This document shows positions 1 through 9,948 of a DNA stretch of 64,000 nucleotides, piece after piece. The position numbers and the translations under genes are program-made. Location: NCBI RefSeq assembly GCF_054482595.1, contig NZ_CM137008.1. One strand, written 5' to 3'. Position 1 is the stretch's first letter; every line of letters begins with the position of its first letter. The notes under the pieces were generated by a model. The model did not search any database, was not told where the DNA came from, and saw only the letters and a list, made by a program, of their open reading frames with translations.

Positions 1-531
1 CTGTGTAGAGACATCATAGTTTTGATAACTATTGCTTCCCCACCCTGCTGAAATTTCCGTTCCGGGTTCATCGCGCGTCGTGATGATATTCACCACCCCG
101 CCTATTGCATCGGAACCATAAACGGCGGAGCGCGGCCCACGGATATATTCAACACGCTGGACAAGCGCAATAGGGAACTGGCTAAGGTCGGCAGAACCAC
201 TCACCCCCGCCAGATTCAGGCGTACGCCATCAATTAACACCAACACATGACTGGCATTTGTACCGCGAATAAAAATAGATGAGAGCTGACCTGAACCGCC
301 GTTTTGGGTGATATCGACGCCCGGAAGACGGCGCAGCACATCATTAACCGAGGTCGACTGCCAGCGGTCGATATCCTGACGCGTCACAACGGTGGTTGGT
401 GCAAGCACAGTGCTGCGCGGCTGTTCAAAACGGTTAGCAGTAACGACGAGAGTATCCGGGCTGGTATCCTGTGCCCAAGCGGAAAAGGCTGTGACAGAAC
501 ACGCCGTCAGCAGCGAAGCTTTTTTAATCAT
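1..531 (-). CDS. btuB: Vitamin B12 TonB-dependent outer membrane transporter BtuB, N-terminal ~177 codons (gene continues beyond window start)
   Basis: Minus-strand reading from ATG at 531..529 gives [38 protein letters not shown] (signal peptide + TonB box). Absent from ORF track because truncated by window edge. Divergent from trmA as in E. coli. Confidence 0.9.
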
Positions 532-772
532 TGTAAAGCATCCACAATAGAAGAAGGATGCCGCAGGTTTCATCAATATTACGCGATGATGAGAACCAGA
601 TGCGACGTTGGCCGGCAGGTCTTCGGGCTTGGAGGGGTATCTAAGATACTAAGAGATGATGACTTCCCACCGAATGGCAGTGTCCGCATAACGCAATCAT
701 CGCACCTTTCCTTACCGCTGCGCGTCAGCTCCAGATTCGCACTGGATTCCCTATTAACTCACAGGACCGGCA
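532..772 (-). promoter_or_regulatory. btuB 5' leader containing the cobalamin (AdoCbl) riboswitch
   Basis: Minus-strand sequence upstream of the btuB ATG reads as the btuB leader (GCCGGTCCTGTGAGTTAATAGGGAATCCAGTGCGAATCTGGAGCTGACGCGCAGCGGTAAGGAAAGGTGCGATGATTGCG...). Extent approximate. Confidence 0.8.
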
Positions 773-899
773 AGTGGATGCTACAGGTTGTAACAAGTTA
801 CTGTCCAGACGTAGCTCACAAATAGGAATTCATCAAGATCTGGACATCTGATGAGCAATCCCTACAATCGCCGCGTACTTTAATTTTTCAGGATACATC

Positions 900-2000
900 A
901 TGACCCCCGAACACCTTCCAACAGAACAGTATGAAGCGCAGTTAGCCGAAAAAGTGGTACGTTTGCAAAGTATGATGGCACCGTTTTCTGACCTGGTTCC
1001 GGAAGTGTTTCGCTCGCCGGTCAGTCATTACCGGATGCGTGCGGAGTTCCGCATCTGGCACGATGGCGATGACCTGTACCACATCATTTTCGATCAACAA
1101 ACCAAAAGCCGTATCCGGGTGGATAGCTTCCCCGCCGCCAGTGAACTCATCAACCAGTTGATGACGGCGATGATTGCGGGTGTGCGTAATAATCCCATTC
1201 TGCGCCACAAGTTGTTCCAGATTGATTACCTCACCACGCTGAGTAATCAGGCGGTGGTTTCCTTGCTGTACCATAAAAAGCTGGATGATGAGTGGCGTCA
1301 GGAAGCGGAAGCCCTGCGCGATGCACTGCGAGCACAGAATCTGAATGTGCATCTGATTGGTCGGGCAACGAAAACCAAAATCGCGCTGGATCAAGATTAC
1401 ATCGACGAACGTCTGCCGGTCGCAGGGAAAGAGATGATCTACCGTCAGGTAGAAAACAGCTTTACCCAGCCGAACGCGGCGATGAATATTCAGATGCTGG
1501 AATGGGCGCTGGACGTAACCAAAGGCTCAAAAGGCGATTTACTGGAGCTGTACTGCGGCAACGGTAACTTCTCATTAGCCCTGGCGCGCAATTTTGATCG
1601 GGTATTAGCCACCGAAATCGCCAAGCCGTCAGTCGCTGCCGCGCAATACAATATTGCCGCTAACCATATTGATAACGTACAAATTATTCGTATGGCGGCA
1701 GAAGAATTTACTCAGGCGATGAATGGCGTGCGCGAGTTTAACCGCCTGCAAGGGATCGACTTAAAGAGTTATCAGTGCGAAACCATTTTTGTCGACCCAC
1801 CGCGCAGCGGTCTGGACAGTGAAACCGAGAAAATGGTGCAGGCGTATCCACGTATTCTGTATATCTCCTGCAATCCGGAAACGTTATGCAAGAATCTGGA
1901 AACATTAAGCCAGACGCACAAGGTCGAACGCCTGGCTCTGTTTGATCAGTTCCCCTACACGCACCATATGGAGTGCGGCGTATTACTGACCGCGAAGTAA
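900..2000 (+). CDS. trmA: tRNA (uracil54-C5)-methyltransferase TrmA
   Basis: 366 aa [35 protein letters not shown]...; SAM-methyltransferase motifs; synteny btuB-trmA-yijD-fabR. Confidence 0.95.
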
Positions 2001-2005
2001 AACCC

Positions 2006-2032
2006 ATGCCGGATGCGCCAGCATCCGGCATG
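2006..2032. terminator. Bidirectional intrinsic terminator between convergent trmA and yijD
   Basis: Hairpin atgccggatgcgccagcatccggcat immediately after the trmA stop. Confidence 0.6.
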
Positions 2033-2039
2033 ATACCGA

Positions 2040-2399
2040 TTACTCAGCAACTTCCTGCTTACGGTTACGCATCTTCGCGCCAATCCAGAACACCATAATG
2101 ACGGAGAGTACTGCCGGGAAGAAGTTAGAGCCGATATCCGGATATTCCGCACGAACTACCGTGCTGTACAGCAGTACGCCGAGAATAAAACAGGCAGCTG
2201 CCAGACCCGGCAAGCCTACCGGCATGGTGCGATTAAGATAACGTTGATGCAGGCAGTAAACCGTCAGCACCAGGGAAATAATCGGGAATACAGAAAATGG
2301 CACAATGGAGCTAAACAGCGCTGCGAAAGTACCATTAATCGATAAGCCAGCAACCAACGCCAGCAGCAGCGTACCTCTATCTTGATTTGCTTGTTTCAT
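2040..2399 (-). CDS. yijD: Inner membrane protein YijD (DUF1422)
   Basis: 119 aa hydrophobic [33 protein letters not shown]...; 1-nt overlap (TAATG) with fabR stop. Confidence 0.9.
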
Positions 2400-3046
2400 T
2401 ACTCGTCCTTCACATTTCCCGGAATAATTGCGGTTTTCTCTTGTTCACGGCGATACCAGTAATAAGCCCCTTTCGAAATCATTCGCAGTTGCAGTACCAG
2501 TCGCTCTTCTAATTGCCGACGTTGTTCGACGCCGACGTCCAACGCCTCGGCACCCGCACTGAAGACAATTGTCACCATTGCTTCGGCTTGCGCTTCAGTA
2601 AACGCACGCGGCATATGGTTTTCGAGTTCCAGATAGTCCGCAAGTTCCGCAATGAAGTGCTGAATTTCACGCGCAACGGCGGCACGAAACGCAGCGGAGG
2701 TGCCGGAGCGTTCCCGCAATAATAACCGGAAGGCGTTAGGATTATTACCGATGAACTCCATAAATGTGGAGACCGAGGTGCGGATCACACTCCCGCCTTT
2801 GGCGATACGCTGACGCGCCTGGCGCATGAGTTGGCGTAGCATTAAACCGCTCTCATCAACCATGGTCAGACCCAGTTCGTCTACGTCGCGGAAATGCCGA
2901 TAAAAAGAGGTGGGAGCAATGCCCGCTTCACGCGCCACTTCACGCAAACTCAAGCTGGCGAAGCTGCGTTCAGCACTTAATTGGCTAAATGCGGCTTCCA
3001 CCAGCGAACGGCGGGTTTTTTCTTTTTGTTGCGCTCTTACGCCCAT
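2399..3046 (-). CDS. fabR: TetR-family repressor of unsaturated fatty acid biosynthesis FabR
   Basis: Conserved protein starts [29 protein letters not shown]...; track ORF extends to 3142 but the conserved start is the internal Met (coordinate 3046). Confidence 0.9.
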
Positions 3047-3152
3047 CACGATGTCTGAATCCTTGCCAAAAGTACTGCTGGCACTATACCAGAGAATGAA
3101 CATACTGGATTGCTCCAGTATTGTGAATGAACGGTAACGCAATAAAACATAT

Positions 3153-4469
3153 TTACTGCAATTCTTTGGCCGGTTCTTTTACGTACAACAACGCCAACAT
3201 CGACAGCAACGTGCCTCCACCCAGATACCACGCCGGAGCCGTCAAACTATCCAGCAACACGATGGATTGCGTAGCGAAATATTGAGCAAAACCGCCAAAG
3301 ATTGCCACACCAATGCTATAAACCAGCGCAAAACCCAATGCCCGAATCCGTTTCGGCAACAGTTCAGAGATCAACAACATCACTGGCACACCGCCAAGCG
3401 TGGTAAAGCTGACCATCACGAAAACCACCGTCAGCAACATGCCAGGGCTTGGGTAATTCACCAACAGCCAGAATGACGGCCAGCTACAGATCAGCACCAT
3501 CACACGGGAGATTAAAATCAGCTTTTTACGCCCGACCGAATCGCACAACATCCCCACAAGCAGCGCACCCACAAACGTAATAACGCCCGCCAGTAACATC
3601 GCTGCATGAGAATAATGTTGAGGCATCGCCAGATACTTCGCCGCCCAGGTGCCGTAATAAAAGAGGGAGATATAGGTTGCGACCGTGCTACCAATAGCGA
3701 GTAAAACGCCATTAACGATAGTCGCCTTATGTTGCAGGAGCAGAGAAAACGCGCTTTCGCTGGTAGCAGCTTTTTTATTGCGCACAGGCTCAGGTACGTC
3801 ATTTTCCAGACTCAAACGCAACCAACAGCCGACAGGCGCTAATAACACGCCAATAAAAAACGGCACACGCCAGCCCCATTCAGCCATGACGGTTTCTGAA
3901 CCGGTCGCAAAGGGCAGCCATGCACTTAAACCTAAAGCGACAACACCTCCAAAAGTTGTTGCCAGGCCTTGAGTCGCCAGTGACCAACTGCTGTAAAAAC
4001 CGCGACGATTTGCCGGAGCTGACTCCACCAGTAGCGACATTGAAGCCCCAACTTCACCGCCTGCTGCAACACCCTGAATCAAACGAGCAAGTACCAGAGT
4101 TGCCGTTCCCCAATAGCCCGCCGTCGCATACGTCGGCGCAATGCCAATCATCAACGTGCCGAGGCTCATCAGGGCAATAGTGAACACCATCGCGGGTTTG
4201 CGTCCGAAACGATCGGCCCAGGCCCCGACGATAATTCCACCAAGCGGGCGCATAAAAAAACTCACGCCAAACGTTGCAAATGCCAGTAACAGCGCGACAT
4301 TGTGATCAGCGCTGGGTGGGAAGAAAAGTGTACTGATATAGACCACAAAAAAGTTGTAAACGCCAAAATCAAACAATTCGAGCGCATTGCCAAACGCCGA
4401 GGCAAAAATCACCCGCCTGCCGCTGGGCTTTTTCTTCACACTCACGGTTTCATTTACGATCGCCGTCAT
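3153..4469 (-). CDS. MFS transporter, metabolite:H+ symporter (MHS) family-like; substrate unknown
   Basis: 438 aa, many predicted TM segments, MFS signature region GxxxDRFGRK ([12 protein letters not shown]). Lies in a segment I do not recall between fabR and sthA in K-12. Confidence 0.8.
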
Positions 4470-4511
4470 TCCATGTTCCTTGCCAAAAAGTGTTGTTGTG
4501 TGTTGTTTTAT

Positions 4512-5678
4512 TTATTGCAGCCAGGCTTCTACCAGTGCGCCCCAGTAGCTGCTTGCCGGGACCAGACTTGCATCGTTGAAGTCGTAACCCGGGTTATGCA
4601 CCATGCAGGAACCTTCCCCGACATCGCCATTACCGAATAACAGGAAACCGCCTTTGGGTTGGGCTTCCAGCATGAAAGAGAAATCTTCACTGCCCATCAG
4701 AGGCTTGATGCCAAACTCGGCCAGCTCTTCACCAAACGTTTTACACGCCACCTGCCAGGCGAAGCGCGCCATCTCCTCGTCATTCACTAATACCGGTGTA
4801 CCGTTAACATGCGTAACCTCAGCCGTAGCACCAAAGCTGGCAGCCAGGGCTTGTGCCAGAGCAGGAATACGGGTCAGAAGAAGTTGTCGGGTATCGCGGC
4901 TAAGAGAGCGGACGCTGATTTTCATCTCAGCACTGTCAGGAATGACGTTAGCCGCCTCACCCGCAACAATGCTGCCGACGGTAATTACCGCCGCTTCCAG
5001 CGGATCGACATTGCGCGACACAATGCTTTGTAATGCGGTGGTGATATGTGCCGCGACCAGCACCGGATCGATGGCTTTGTGCGGGATCGCACCGTGTCCG
5101 CCACAACCACGAACTGTAATATGGAACTGATCCATTGACGCCATCAGTGCCCCTGGCTGGAAATAAAACTTACCCACCGGCAGACCGGGCATGTTATGCA
5201 TGCCGAAAATGACATCGCAGGGGAAATGATCAAAAAGCCCCTCTTTAACCATGATCTCACCGCCATTAATCATCTCTTCCGCAGGCTGGAAGATAAGACG
5301 TAACGTGCCGTTAAAACGGCGGGTTTCGGCAAAATAACGCGCGGCCCCCAGCAGTATGGTGGTATGCCCGTCATGCCCGCAGGCGTGCATTAAACCAGGA
5401 TGTTTACTGGCCCAGAGCTTGCCACTATTTTCATAAATCGGCAGCGCATCCATATCCGCCCGCAGGCCAATACTTTTCTCTCCGTCGCCCACTTTTAACG
5501 TGGCCACTATCCCCGTCGTCGCCAGTCCTTGCTCTACTTCATAGCCCCACTGACGCAGCTTTTCCGCAACCAAAGCACTGGTTTTAAATTCTTGTAATCC
5601 CAGCTCCGGGTTTTCGTGGATCTGATGGCGGATCTCACGCAGTTCTTCCTCAAACCCTCGAATATAGTGTTCGATCAT
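4512..5678 (-). CDS. M20D-family amidohydrolase (hippurate hydrolase / N-acyl-amino acid amidohydrolase-like)
   Basis: 388 aa with HACGHDGH metal-binding motif typical of peptidase M20D (AbgA/HipO/ILR1 type); co-oriented with the MFS gene, 42 bp apart. Confidence 0.8.
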   Translation of the reverse strand: MIEHYIRGFEEELREIRHQIHENPELGLQEFKTSALVAEKLRQWGYEVEQGLATTGIVATLKVGDGEKSIGLRADMDALPIYENSGKLWASKHPGLMHACGHDGHTTILLGAARYFAETRRFNGTLRLIFQPAEEMINGGEIMVKEGLFDHFPCDVIFGMHNMPGLPVGKFYFQPGALMASMDQFHITVRGCGGHGAIPHKAIDPVLVAAHITTALQSIVSRNVDPLEAAVITVGSIVAGEAANVIPDSAEMKISVRSLSRDTRQLLLTRIPALAQALAASFGATAEVTHVNGTPVLVNDEEMARFAWQVACKTFGEELAEFGIKPLMGSEDFSFMLEAQPKGGFLLFGNGDVGEGSCMVHNPGYDFNDASLVPASSYWGALVEAWLQ

Positions 5679-6007
5679 CGGCTATTCCTTTATTCACTTA
5701 TAAACAGGCTAATTAACGGATTTTATTGATGGTATAAATACAAATAACCCATCAATATAAAATATTTATATGTTTGTTTTATAAGAATATTTCATAAAGA
5801 CAATAACAAAAAAGCACGCTTCGGCAAGATAAAACTATCAGCCATAATAAAAAGCGATTAATAGTGAATAAATGGGTTAAGAAGGAGGCAGACAAAGCAA
5901 AGGCCGCTCACGCTATAGCCAGATTAATGACGGGGATCAATTGGCTTACCCGCGATAAAATGTTACCATTCTGTTGCTTTTATGTATAAGAACAGGTAAG
6001 CCCTACC

Positions 6008-7408
6008 ATGCCACATTCCTACGATTACGATGCCATAGTAATAGGTTCCGGCCCCGGCGGCGAAGGCGCTGCAATGGGCCTGGTTAAGCAAGGTGCGCGC
6101 GTCGCAGTTATCGAGCGTTATCAAAATGTTGGCGGCGGTTGCACCCACTGGGGCACCATCCCGTCGAAAGCTCTCCGTCACGCCGTCAGCCGCATTATAG
6201 AATTCAATCAAAACCCACTATACAGCGACCATTCCCGACTGCTCCGCTCTTCTTTTGCCGATATCCTTAACCATGCCGATAACGTGATTAATCAACAAAC
6301 GCGCATGCGTCAGGGATTTTACGAACGTAATCACTGTGAAATATTGCAGGGGAACGCTCGCTTTGTTGACGAGCATACGTTGGCGCTGGATTGCCCGGAC
6401 GGCAGCGTTGAAACACTAACCGCTGAAAAATTTGTTATTGCCTGCGGCTCTCGTCCATATCATCCAACAGATGTTGATTTCACCCATCCACGCATTTACG
6501 ACAGCGACTCAATTCTCAGCATGCACCACGAACCGCGCCATGTACTTATCTATGGTGCTGGAGTGATCGGCTGTGAATATGCGTCGATCTTCCGCGGTAT
6601 GGATGTAAAAGTGGATCTGATCAACACCCGCGATCGCCTGCTGGCATTTCTCGATCAAGAGATGTCAGATTCTCTCTCCTATCACTTCTGGAACAGTGGC
6701 GTAGTGATTCGTCACAACGAAGAGTACGAGAAGATCGAAGGCTGTGACGACGGTGTAATCATGCATCTGAAGTCGGGTAAAAAACTGAAAGCCGACTGTC
6801 TGCTCTATGCCAACGGCCGCACCGGTAATACCGATTCGCTGGCATTACAGAACATTGGGCTGGAAACTGACAGTCGCGGACAGCTGAAGGTCAACAGCAT
6901 GTATCAGACCGCACAGCCGCACGTTTACGCGGTGGGCGACGTGATTGGTTATCCGAGCCTGGCATCAGCGGCCTATGACCAGGGGCGCATTGCCGCGCAG
7001 GCGCTGGTAAAAGGCGAAGCCACCGCGCATCTGATTGAAGATATCCCTACCGGCATTTACACCATCCCGGAAATCAGCTCTGTGGGCAAAACCGAACAGC
7101 AGCTGACCGCGATGAAAGTGCCATATGAAGTGGGCCGCGCCCAGTTTAAACATCTGGCACGCGCACAAATCGTTGGCATGAACGTGGGCACGCTGAAAAT
7201 TTTGTTCCATCGGGAAACGAAAGAGATTCTGGGCATTCACTGCTTTGGCGAGCGCGCTGCCGAAATTATTCATATCGGTCAGGCGATTATGGAACAGAAA
7301 GGTGGCGGCAACACTATTGAGTACTTCGTCAACACCACCTTTAACTACCCGACGATGGCGGAAGCCTATCGGGTAGCTGCGTTAAACGGTTTAAACCGCC
7401 TGTTTTAA
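6008..7408 (+). CDS. sthA: Soluble pyridine nucleotide transhydrogenase SthA (UdhA)
   Basis: 466 aa [38 protein letters not shown]...; FAD/NAD dinucleotide-binding motifs. Confidence 0.95.
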
Positions 7409-8308
7409 CACTTTATCGAAATGGCCATCCATTCTTGCGCGGATGGCCTCTGCCAGCTGCTCATAGCGGCTGCGCAGCGGTGAGCCAGGACGATAAACCA
7501 GGCCAATAGTGCGGCGAGGTTCCGGCTTAATACACGGCAAATAAACAACCCCATCGCGTTTGCGCTCCGGCGGCACAGCCAGCGCAGGCAGTAAAGTGAT
7601 CCCGCTACCTGCCGCCACCATGTTACGCAGTGTCTCCAGGCTGGTCGCGCGGAAGTGTGTATCTTCATCCGCCCCGGCTTCAAAGCAGAAACCCATTGCC
7701 TGATCGCGCAAACAGTGACCATCTTCCAGCATCAGCAGTTTTTCCCCTGCCAGGTCGGCCATCGGTACACATTCGCGGTTCGCCCACGGGTGATCTTCAT
7801 AGATAGCCAGCAACATTGGCTCATCAAACAACGGCACTTCAATGAATGCTTCGCTCTCTTTCACCAGCGCGAGGATCACGCAATCGAGTTTGCCACTGTC
7901 CAGTTGCGCCAGTAACTGGTGGGTCTGTGCTTCATGCAGATACATTTCCAGCTTTGGAAAGGTCTGGTGCAGCATCGGGATAATATGCGGTAGCAGGTAC
8001 GGTCCAACCGTGGGAATCAAACCAATATGCAGCGGTCCGGACATCGTCTCGCCCTGCTGGCTTGCCATCTCTTTAAGGACTTTCACCTCACGCAGCACGG
8101 TACGCGCCTGATCCACCAGCAGCATTCCCGCCTGGGTGAACAATACTTTACGGCTGGTCCGCTCCAGCAACATCACGCCCAGCTCATCTTCCAGCTTACG
8201 AATTTGCCCGCTAAGCGTCGGCTGGCTAACGTGGCAGGAATCTGCCGCACGCCGAAAATGGCGGTGTTCGGCCAATGCCACCAGGTACTCAAGATCACGA
8301 ATATTCAT
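7391..8308 (-). CDS. oxyR: LysR-family oxidative stress regulator OxyR
   Basis: Conserved 305 aa protein [40 protein letters not shown]...; track ORF has a 15-codon upstream extension. 3' end overlaps sthA convergently by 18 bp. Confidence 0.95.
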
Positions 8309-8403
8309 TATCCATCCTCCATTGCCACGATAGTTCGCGGCGATAGGTAGCATAGCAACGAACGATTATCCCTATCAAGCATTCTGACTGATAATTGCTC
8401 ACA
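8309..8403. promoter_or_regulatory. oxyR-oxyS divergent promoter region with OxyR binding site
   Basis: Intergenic between oxyR start and oxyS 5' end; known arrangement in E. coli. Sites not individually mapped. Confidence 0.6.
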
Positions 8404-8516
8404 GAAACGGAGCGGCACCTCTTTTAACCCTTGAAGTCACTGCCCGTTTCGAGAGTTTCTCAACTCGAATAACTAAAGCCAACGTGAACTTTTGCGGATC
8501 TCCAGGATCCGCTTTT
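8404..8516 (+). ncRNA. oxyS: OxyS small regulatory RNA
   Basis: Sequence GAAACGGAGCGGCACCTCTTTTAACCCTTGAAGTCACTGCCCGTTTCGAGAGTTTCTCAACTCGAATAACTAAAGCCAACGTGAACTTTTGCGGATCTCCAGGATCCGC followed by T-run (intrinsic terminator). Confidence 0.93.
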
Positions 8517-8574
8517 TTTTGCCATAAAAAAGCCCGGCGATAAGCCAGGCTCAAATTTATACATATAAATGTTC

Positions 8575-9948
8575 TTACCCCAACCGCGCCTGCGCAAAAG
8601 CAATTGCCTGCGCCACCTGCTGCGGTGAGACGCCGCCTTTTGCCGCACGCTTGTCGAGGCACGATTGCAGCGACAGAATCGGATAGACATCTTCGCCAAT
8701 CACCTGGCTGAATTTCTGTAACTCAGTCAGCGGCAACTCTTCCAGCGGTTTGCCCTGACGAATAGCTTCCACCACCGCTTCACCCACGATATGGTGCGCC
8801 TCGCGGAACGGCACGCCTTTCGCCACCAGGTAATCCGCCAGTTCAGTGGCGTTCGCATACCCCTGCTGCGCCGCTTCCTGGCAACGCGGACGTTTCACCT
8901 GAATGCCGTCCAGCACCAGCGCCGCCATATGCAGGCAGTCCAGCCAGGTGTCGAGCGCGTCGAACAGGCCTTCTTTGTCTTCCTGCATATCTTTGTTGTA
9001 AGCCAGCGGCAAACCTTTCAGCGTCATCATCATGCCGGTTAACGCGCCCTGCACCCGACCGCATTTACCGCGAATCAGCTCCAGCGCATCCGGGTTTTTC
9101 TTCTGCGGCATTAATGATGAACCGGAAGTCACGCGGTCAGAAAGCTCGACAAACCCTGCTTCGCCGGTGTTAAAGAAGATCAGATCTTCAGCAAAACGCG
9201 ACAGATGCACCATGCCGATAGCGGCAGCAGAAAGCAGTTCCAGCACGTGGTCGCGGTCAGAAACGCTGTCGAGACTGTTACGGGTCGCCGAAGCAAAGCC
9301 CAGCCAGCCAGCTAACTGTTCACGGTCGATTTCATAGGCCGTTCCCGCCAGCGCGCCACAGCCTAACGGGCTGACATCCAGACGCTTAAGCGCATCCTGC
9401 AAGCGGCTTTCATCACGCGCCAGCATCTCAACATAGGCCAGACACCAGTGCGCGAATGTCACCGGCTGGGCACGTTGCAGGTGGGTATAGCCCGGCATCA
9501 CCGCGTCCTGATTATTCTGCGCGGTTTCTACCAGCGCCGATTGCAACTGGCGGTTAGCCGTCAGCAACTCGCCAACGGTATCCTTGCACCACAGTTTCAG
9601 GTCAGTCGCGACCTGGTCATTACGGCTACGCCCGGTATGCAGCTTTTTGCCTAACTGCCCCACTTTGTCGATCAGTTTCCCTTCCACCCAGCTATGGATA
9701 TCTTCGGCGTCGCTTTCAAGGATTTGTTGTGGCCTGGCGCGAACATCTTCCAGCAGCACGTTCAGCGCCTCTTCCAGTTGCGCCTGTTCTTCTGCGGTTA
9801 ACACGCCTACCGTTACCAGGGCTTTGGACCAGGCCACAGAGCCAACAATATCCTGCTCCGCCAGACGGTAATCAAAGCGCAGTGAGTCGTTAAATTGTTT
9901 GAACCGTTGATCTGCTGCCTGGGTAAAACGCCCGCCCCAAAGTGCCAT
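8575..9948 (-). CDS. argH: Argininosuccinate lyase ArgH
   Basis: 457 aa [37 protein letters not shown]... Confidence 0.95.

Follow-up and report, generated by a model that had tools for sequence, protein, structure and literature searches.

The convergent genes sthA and oxyR of Escherichia coli share their last 18 bp, and we consider it about 80% probable that this junction is an ordinary, long-fixed tail-to-tail overlap, to be explained jointly with mRNAs that end behind hairpins, with Rho and with trimming. The overlap as such is already known: the reference annotation contains it, and its overlapping transcripts appear in published lists. The detail added here concerns the length of the overlap, which changes in three-codon steps through the Leu codons of sthA, an OxyR tail that is overprinted on the invariant C-terminus of SthA, and stem-loops that appear to be held in place at silent sites.

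The shared stretch and its two coding frames

The window analyzed here is the whole stretch of 64,000 nucleotides from contig NZ_CM137008.1 (NCBI RefSeq assembly GCF_054482595.1). In it, sthA occupies 6008..7408 on the + strand and encodes the soluble Si-specific NAD(P)+ transhydrogenase of 466 amino acids, as judged by its open reading frame, the profile NF003585, and the RefSeq annotation of identical DNA. The oxyR gene occupies 7391..8308 on the - strand and encodes the LysR-type peroxide sensor and regulator, 305 amino acids long from MNIRDL (open reading frame, NF008361, and RefSeq). The names given to both genes in the first-pass annotation agree with the equivalog profile matches, with 806 bits for SthA in NF003585 (cut-off 465) and 633 bits for OxyR in NF008361 (cut-off 329), the latter covering profile positions 1–305 of 305. 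The pair has both features that define convergent overlapping coding sequences, namely real genes on opposite strands and shared 3′ bases.

The overlap, TTAAACCGCCTGTTTTAA, lies at 7391..7408 on both strands and comprises 18 bp including both stop codons, as seen in the sequence and its conservation; the limits proposed for it in the first-pass annotation are exact by open reading frames, sequence, and RefSeq. The 3′ end of sthA reads ...AAC CGC CTG TTT TAA with its stop at 7406–7408, and TTA at 7391–7393 gives, on the opposite strand, the oxyR stop TAA. Each stop codon was said to lie inside the coding sequence of the partner, which is what the open reading frames contain, and the two frames are codon-aligned on the opposite strands, so that the sthA end L462-N-R-L-F-stop is antisense to the oxyR end L301-K-Q-A-V-stop. 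Codon by codon, TTA of sthA L462 is read in oxyR as the stop TAA, AAC of N463 as GTT (V305), CGC of R464 as GCG (A304), CTG of L465 as CAG (Q303), TTT of F466 as AAA (K302), and the sthA stop TAA as TTA (L301).

The description of the overlap as the known arrangement of E. coli is borne out by the RefSeq annotation of K-12 MG1655 (NC_000913.3), in which oxyR (b3961) lies at 4158490..4159407 and sthA (b3962) at 4159390..4160790, sharing the 18 bp 4159390..4159407 with a sequence identical to that of the window (K-12 position = 4166798 minus window position). K-12 and the window thus have the same genes, orientation, and overlap, and their hairpins A, B, and C, described below, are also identical. 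No indels separate the two sequences across sthA and oxyR; there are 36 SNPs over both genes, and only one of them, at 7409 just outside the overlap, falls in 7235–7516. RefSeq gives sthA and oxyR the same relative coordinates in strain XH990, and both the window and XH990 differ from K-12 by two additional genes between sthA and fabR. Several E. coli chromosomes match the approximately 3 kb around the junction at 100% identity, and of 5426 complete genomes of the species, 5425 have the locus.

The overlap is old and conserved in enteric bacteria. A scan with one genome per species yielded 80 loci, all from Enterobacteriaceae, of which 78 could be scored for overlap; it was kept in all 78, of which 76 share 18 bp and two share 27 bp. 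With the agreeing RefSeq coordinates, this excludes chance or faulty annotation as its origin. Other families were reached via OxyR homologues and contig look-ups, a sample that lies outside Yersinia, Pectobacterium, Vibrio, and Pasteurellaceae. The 18-bp overlap is also found in Pantoea, Serratia, and Edwardsiella. Proteus and Photorhabdus, with TTA or CTA at Leu465, have a 9-bp overlap, and Morganella has one of 4 bp (TTAA). In Plesiomonas the two genes are still convergent but are separated by 98 bp of spacer with a strong hairpin in it, and Pragia lacks sthA at this site. The overlap may have been born by the loss of an ancestral intergenic spacer.

The length of the overlap tracks the choice of Leu codon at the C-terminus of sthA because TTA and CTA are TAA and TAG on the antisense strand; overlaps of 9, 18, or 27 bp are set by TTA or CTA at Leu465, Leu462, or Leu459 of sthA, respectively. 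Of 79 sequences, 76 have TTA or CTA at Leu462, and the remaining Leu codons of sthA are mostly CTG. The 27-bp overlaps belong to Enterobacter soli and Pluralibacter gergoviae; because Leu462 is CTG in these two species, the usual oxyR stop is lost and OxyR is three residues longer, its stop being the antisense of CTA at Leu459.

The constrained frame of the two is that of sthA, since the C-terminus of SthA is invariant and the tail of OxyR variable. Seven loci from other families agree in all of the last 24 SthA residues but each has a different OxyR tail, and this tail is variable past about residue 291. A solved homologue of SthA aligns through the last residue, while solved OxyR homologues align only as far as residues 289–291; the constructs of the OxyR structures PDB 1I69 and 1I6A extend to residue 305. 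Within the overlap, the OxyR replacements Q303K/E and V305I correspond to synonymous changes in sthA (CTG to CTT or CTC, and AAC to AAT, respectively). The OxyR tail is a tolerated antisense read-out that drifts with the silent sites of sthA.

Mapped transcript ends and the hairpins before them

The first-pass annotation had held that transcription of each gene runs into the other, which follows from the geometry and is supported by published 3′ ends, and the strand-specific RNA-seq coverage that it named as a check is already in the literature: oxyR–sthA is one of 165 convergent pairs whose transcripts overlap in 50% or more of 58 MG1655 transcriptomes (ExcludonFinder, 2025). A Term-seq 3′ end of sthA was mapped at K-12 4159345(-) under two conditions and classified as ‘primary sthA, antisense oxyR’ (Adams et al., 2021, Supplementary file 1), and the same end is given in a later re-analysis (TRS, 2023, Supplementary Data 2). 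It corresponds to window position 7453, which is 63 nt into the oxyR coding sequence counting the stop codon, and leaves a + strand 3′ UTR of 45 nt (7409..7453) that is wholly antisense to oxyR codons. For oxyR, the primary terminus is at 4159504(+) with a 3′ UTR of approximately 100 nt (TRS, 2023, Supplementary Data 2 and 4), an end that has this one re-analysis as its source and is not in the curated list of Adams et al. (2021). It corresponds to window position 7294, 115 nt into the sthA coding sequence counting the stop codon, and the resulting - strand 3′ UTR of 97 nt (7294..7390) is wholly antisense to sthA codons 430–461. From the two mapped 3′ ends, the mRNAs are perfectly complementary to each other over 160 nt (7294..7453, both strands).

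Each mapped end lies just behind a predicted stem-loop. Hairpin B (7423..7448, + strand) has an 8-bp stem, 7423–7430 paired with 7441–7448 (GGCCATCC / GGATGGCC), and a 10-nt loop; it is encoded by oxyR codons E287–H296 and forms the 3′ stem-loop of the sthA mRNA, whose mapped end follows 5 nt later, with the tail UCUGCCAG. The oxyR 3′ UTR folds into two adjacent stem-loops and a 4-nt tail. Hairpin A (7345..7376, - strand, sthA codons 446–457) has the stem CTACCCGA / TCGGGTAG, given in + strand letters, with an inner 3-bp GGC/GCC stem, and hairpin C (7298..7342, - strand, sthA codons 431–445) has 10 + 5 bp (AAAGGUGGUG...CGCCACCUUU). The mapped oxyR end comes 4 nt after hairpin C, with the tail CUGUUCCA. 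None of hairpins A, B, and C has a U tract behind it, and the two tails are likewise devoid of one. The published mapping and the folds together place the end of the sthA mRNA 45 nt past its stop codon, after hairpin B, and that of the oxyR mRNA 97 nt past its stop codon, after hairpins A and C.

Several other structural candidates were dropped. An oxyR mRNA end right after hairpin A was ruled out, as the mapped terminus is 51 nt further, past hairpin C. The first loop base of hairpin A varies freely, which is at odds with a GNRA tetraloop, and the GGTTTAAACC palindrome over the oxyR stop is specific to E. coli, most species having GGC. An antisense open reading frame at 6965..7273 with the Shine–Dalgarno-like AAAGGUGGUG was also set aside, as hairpin C accounts for the conservation. 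RNAalifold on the + strand did not recover hairpin B, with which long-range pairs competed, and it was then tested as a named structure.

A consensus scan for intrinsic terminators found no site at the junction, nor anywhere between 7265 and 8493; over 5600..8800 there were five matches against a shuffle mean of 3.5, and the two convincing ones were those of oxyS and argH. An intrinsic or bidirectional terminator was rejected because the junction has no G+C-rich stem with a U tract. No Rfam family was found in the overlap or the hairpins, the search of 5600..9000 returning OxyS (8404..8513, 139.5 bits) and one chance-level match, and the SMRT-Cappable-seq supplements contain no oxyR or sthA entries.

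Significant Rho regions are present on both strands in the published data, which use 800-nt windows of coarse resolution and one data set with bicyclomycin (BCM), a Rho inhibitor (Adams et al., 2021, Supplementary file 2). Read-through in the sthA sense peaks at 7783 (+ strand; K-12 4159015(-), Rho score 5.8, p = 6e-31), which is 330 nt downstream of the mapped end. In the oxyR sense, the peak (Rho score 5.1, p = 3e-16) is at 7289 (- strand; K-12 4159509(+)), which, at the same coarse resolution, is 5 nt past the mapped end of oxyR. A stretch richer in C than in G lies 131–390 nt past the sthA stop; as a rut signal, the C/G skew was discarded for its weak agreement with the Rho regions.

By analogy, the two ends look like those of Rho-dependent transcripts whose RNA is guarded by stem-loops against 3′–5′ exonucleases (Dar and Sorek, 2018). 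As in that system, sthA and oxyR have a precise 3′ end past a stem-loop that lacks a U tract, with a coarsely located region of Rho read-through nearby; unlike there, the stem-loops lie inside the opposite coding sequence, under both coding and folding constraint, and trimming is inferred. Past either stop codon, where the ribosomes have left, Rho would stop the untranslated antisense read-through further downstream, and 3′–5′ exonucleases would then trim the transcripts back to the hairpins, which would shield the mRNAs.

Silent sites in the hairpin stems

Across 77 distinct sequences, 97% of the cells of hairpin B are paired, and three of its pairs show compensatory changes, a number reached in none of 500 shuffles (shared ancestry uncorrected). 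For example, OxyR I289V (ATC to GTC) occurs together with GAT to GAC at D294 in nine species, and the pair is kept. The silent sites of A288 (GCC in 70 of 70), I289 (ATC in 62 of 63), and G295 (GGC in 70 of 71) are fixed or nearly so, and the mean minor-codon frequencies for the same amino acids elsewhere in oxyR are 0.32–0.46. These are exactly the sites at which a transition breaks the + strand pair. Hairpin B is not conserved beyond Enterobacteriaceae; in other lineages, its approximate place is taken by different hairpins.

Hairpin C is paired on the - strand in 99.4% of cells across 71 distinct sequences, and all of its 115 variant cells are switches between A-U and G.U or between U-A and U.G, which would be mismatches if the + strand were the one that folded. 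Hairpin A is paired in 96% of cells on the - strand versus 93% on the + strand, and no compensatory change was seen in it in the aligned sequences; within it, 78 of 79 sequences use the rare CGG codon for Arg455. Taking the stems of A and C together, the sthA silent sites at which a transition breaks a - strand pair have a minor-allele frequency of 0.049 (n = 9) versus 0.31 at 123 unpaired sthA silent sites (Mann–Whitney p = 1.5e-5), and stem sites that tolerate a transition range from 0.18 to 0.37. Ranked among the other sthA codons for the same amino acid, none of the nine constrained sites is above the 9th percentile (79 sequences, shared ancestry uncorrected).

These patterns of substitution indicate that the hairpins are probably under strand-specific purifying selection acting at silent sites of the host gene. 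It is fairly well supported that each gene has the 3′ stem-loops of its partner embedded in its codons and keeps them at silent sites, which seems to be undescribed for this locus in the literature searched. The role of hairpin A is less certain because of the lack of compensatory change, its presence in Plesiomonas, where the oxyR stop is approximately 150 nt away, and its absence in Pantoea, Serratia, Edwardsiella, Proteus, and Photorhabdus, that is, in five of the seven loci from outside Enterobacteriaceae.

Alternative readings and biological meaning

The conservation of the silent sites might instead reflect codon bias, translation-speed signals, or an element at the DNA level rather than hairpins at 3′ ends. 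Several of the constrained sites are C-ending codons of Asn, Tyr, and Thr, which are preferred anyway, and the behavior of hairpin A, with no compensatory changes and with its occurrence far from the oxyR stop in Plesiomonas, would fit such an explanation; however, the percentile ranks of the nine sthA sites come from controls matched for amino acid, and both the fixed CGG of Arg455 and GTA, the commonest codon of Val456, are rare rather than preferred. Furthermore, the variation is exactly the set that is wobble-compatible on the mRNA strand of the partner (- for A and C, + for B), the compensatory changes in hairpin B are real, and both mapped ends lie 4–5 nt after hairpins, all of which makes this explanation improbable. 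Far less credit still is due to an annotation artefact, in which the true end of one of the proteins would be earlier or later. No support was found for it, and the past revision of the sthA start (protein version.2) concerns the opposite end of the gene; against it, the stop codons are unambiguous, both frames are open up to them, and the profiles are matched to their ends. The OxyR crystal constructs and the aligned SthA homologue likewise run to the last residue, and the rare TTA or CTA at Leu462 is what would be expected of a codon that doubles as the oxyR stop, so that this reading is already effectively refuted.

The overlap could also be a regulatory convergent excludon, in which polymerase collision or RNase III cleavage of the 160-bp duplex lowers the expression of the partner, and such regulation would tie peroxide regulation by OxyR to the conversion of NADPH to NADH by SthA. 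In its favor, the MG1655 ‘excludome’ includes the pair, the mature mRNAs are complementary at their 3′ ends as described, several families keep the arrangement, and nowhere else in the locus do the window and K-12 differ as little as at the junction. Set against this, of 370 convergent operons in E. coli, 276 were reported to overlap at their 3′ ends, by 286 nt on average (Conway et al., 2014), and transcript overlap as such is therefore ordinary. Like the convergent excludons (Conway et al., 2014; ExcludonFinder, 2025), sthA and oxyR are neighbors whose transcripts overlap at their 3′ ends, but most of the listed pairs have an intergenic spacer, with a mean of 95 nt, whereas sthA and oxyR overlap even in their coding sequences and mutual repression between them is conjectural. 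To judge by the titles under which they are cited in Conway et al. (2014), dnaQ–rnh and ilvA–ilvY are convergent pairs with overlapping transcription and termination. The conservation of the junction is already accounted for by two coding frames and the 3′ hairpins, Plesiomonas has its pair without any overlap and Pragia has no sthA at the site, and a reciprocal expression experiment on oxyR–sthA was not found in the literature searched. Moreover, oxyR is autoregulated; its level is low and roughly constant, not induced, and it would hence serve poorly as a switch. We regard a regulatory excludon as unlikely on these grounds. Similarly doubtful as a whole is a reading in which the overlap goes beyond a compacted junction: the two genes would carry each other's structured 3′ UTR under joint selection, the part that is fairly well supported as noted above, and the 160-nt duplex would let the transcription of oxyR and sthA tune each other. 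A coupling of peroxide sensing to the NADPH/NADH balance through this duplex is pure conjecture.

The reading that we prefer, a long-fixed overlap with hairpin-ended mRNAs, offers three teaching examples: a rare Leu codon that serves the opposite gene as its stop, a presumably dispensable protein tail overprinted antisense to a constrained protein, and silent sites of a gene that appear to be held by the RNA structure of its neighbor's 3′ UTR. For work on either gene, it means that a “silent” recoding of sthA codons 431–462 or of oxyR codons 287–305 would not be neutral for the partner gene, and neither would deletions of sthA or oxyR that remove these segments.

Polymorphism and length of the convergent overlap

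Within Escherichia coli, the 282-bp junction region at 7235..7516 of the window holds one of the 36 SNPs that separate the window from K-12 MG1655 across sthA and oxyR, corresponding to a density of 0.35% compared with 1.5–2.0% on both flanks. Such a low density is as expected from the double constraint on the junction.

In Enterobacteriaceae, the overlap measures 27 bp, not 18 bp, in Enterobacter soli and Pluralibacter gergoviae (loci L011 and L075, 4375..4401; each compared sthA–oxyR locus has its own numbering). The oxyR stop is lost in both because sthA Leu462 has changed from TTA to CTG, which is silent in sthA and leaves OxyR three residues longer, with the C-termini ...KQTVQTV in E. soli and ...KQAVQAV in P. 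gergoviae. Leu462 is also CTG in a metagenome-assembled genome (L023), the overlap length of which was left unscored, as its contig stops too early.

Genes flanking sthA and oxyR

Two minus-strand genes lie between sthA and fabR (window about 3150..5678; 454..2979 in locus L001), namely, an M20 aminoacylase gene (4512..5678) and a citrate-proton symporter gene. Strain XH990 has both and K-12 has neither; in K-12, sthA and fabR are directly divergent with 277 bp between them. This accessory insertion alters the DNA upstream of the sthA promoter region.

On the other side of oxyR, the OxyS sRNA was found on the plus strand at 8404..8513 (Rfam RF00035, 139.5 bits), and its intrinsic terminator (8494..8512, +) stands tail-to-tail with the argH terminator (8552..8530, −), forming a second convergent junction of the locus. 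This junction has two separate canonical terminators, while the oxyR/sthA junction is without such a pair.

In E. coli, argH neighbors oxyR with oxyS between them, whereas Edwardsiella (L085), Pragia (L087), and Plesiomonas (L088) instead have two genes divergent from oxyR (locus about 30..2350), encoding a peroxiredoxin–glutaredoxin fusion of about 243 aa (AhpC-TSA and Glutaredoxin) and a pyridine-nucleotide disulfide oxidoreductase of 482 aa, which are probably an OxyR-regulated peroxidase system. In Serratia sp. S1B (L084, 1664..2237), a gene for a HicB-family antitoxin has been inserted together with a small partner ORF into the argH–oxyR interval, the position of oxyS in E. coli.

Disrupted or absent sthA and the Plesiomonas spacer

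In the complete genome of Kluyvera genomosp. 3 YDC799 (L082, 3001..4397), the sthA match is 1 base short with an in-frame stop at 3078, so that the gene is a frameshifted pseudogene unless the sequence itself is in error. Pragia fontium (L087, 3418..5918) has no sthA between oxyR and fabR, and a BrxR-like WYL regulator and cas1 are located directly past yijD.

Within the 98-bp oxyR–sthA spacer of Plesiomonas (L088, 3410..3507) is a G+C-rich hairpin of 9 bp, GCGTGCAGC...GCTGCACGC. Both convergent transcripts could make use of it, and it may be what was lost in the lineages with an overlap.
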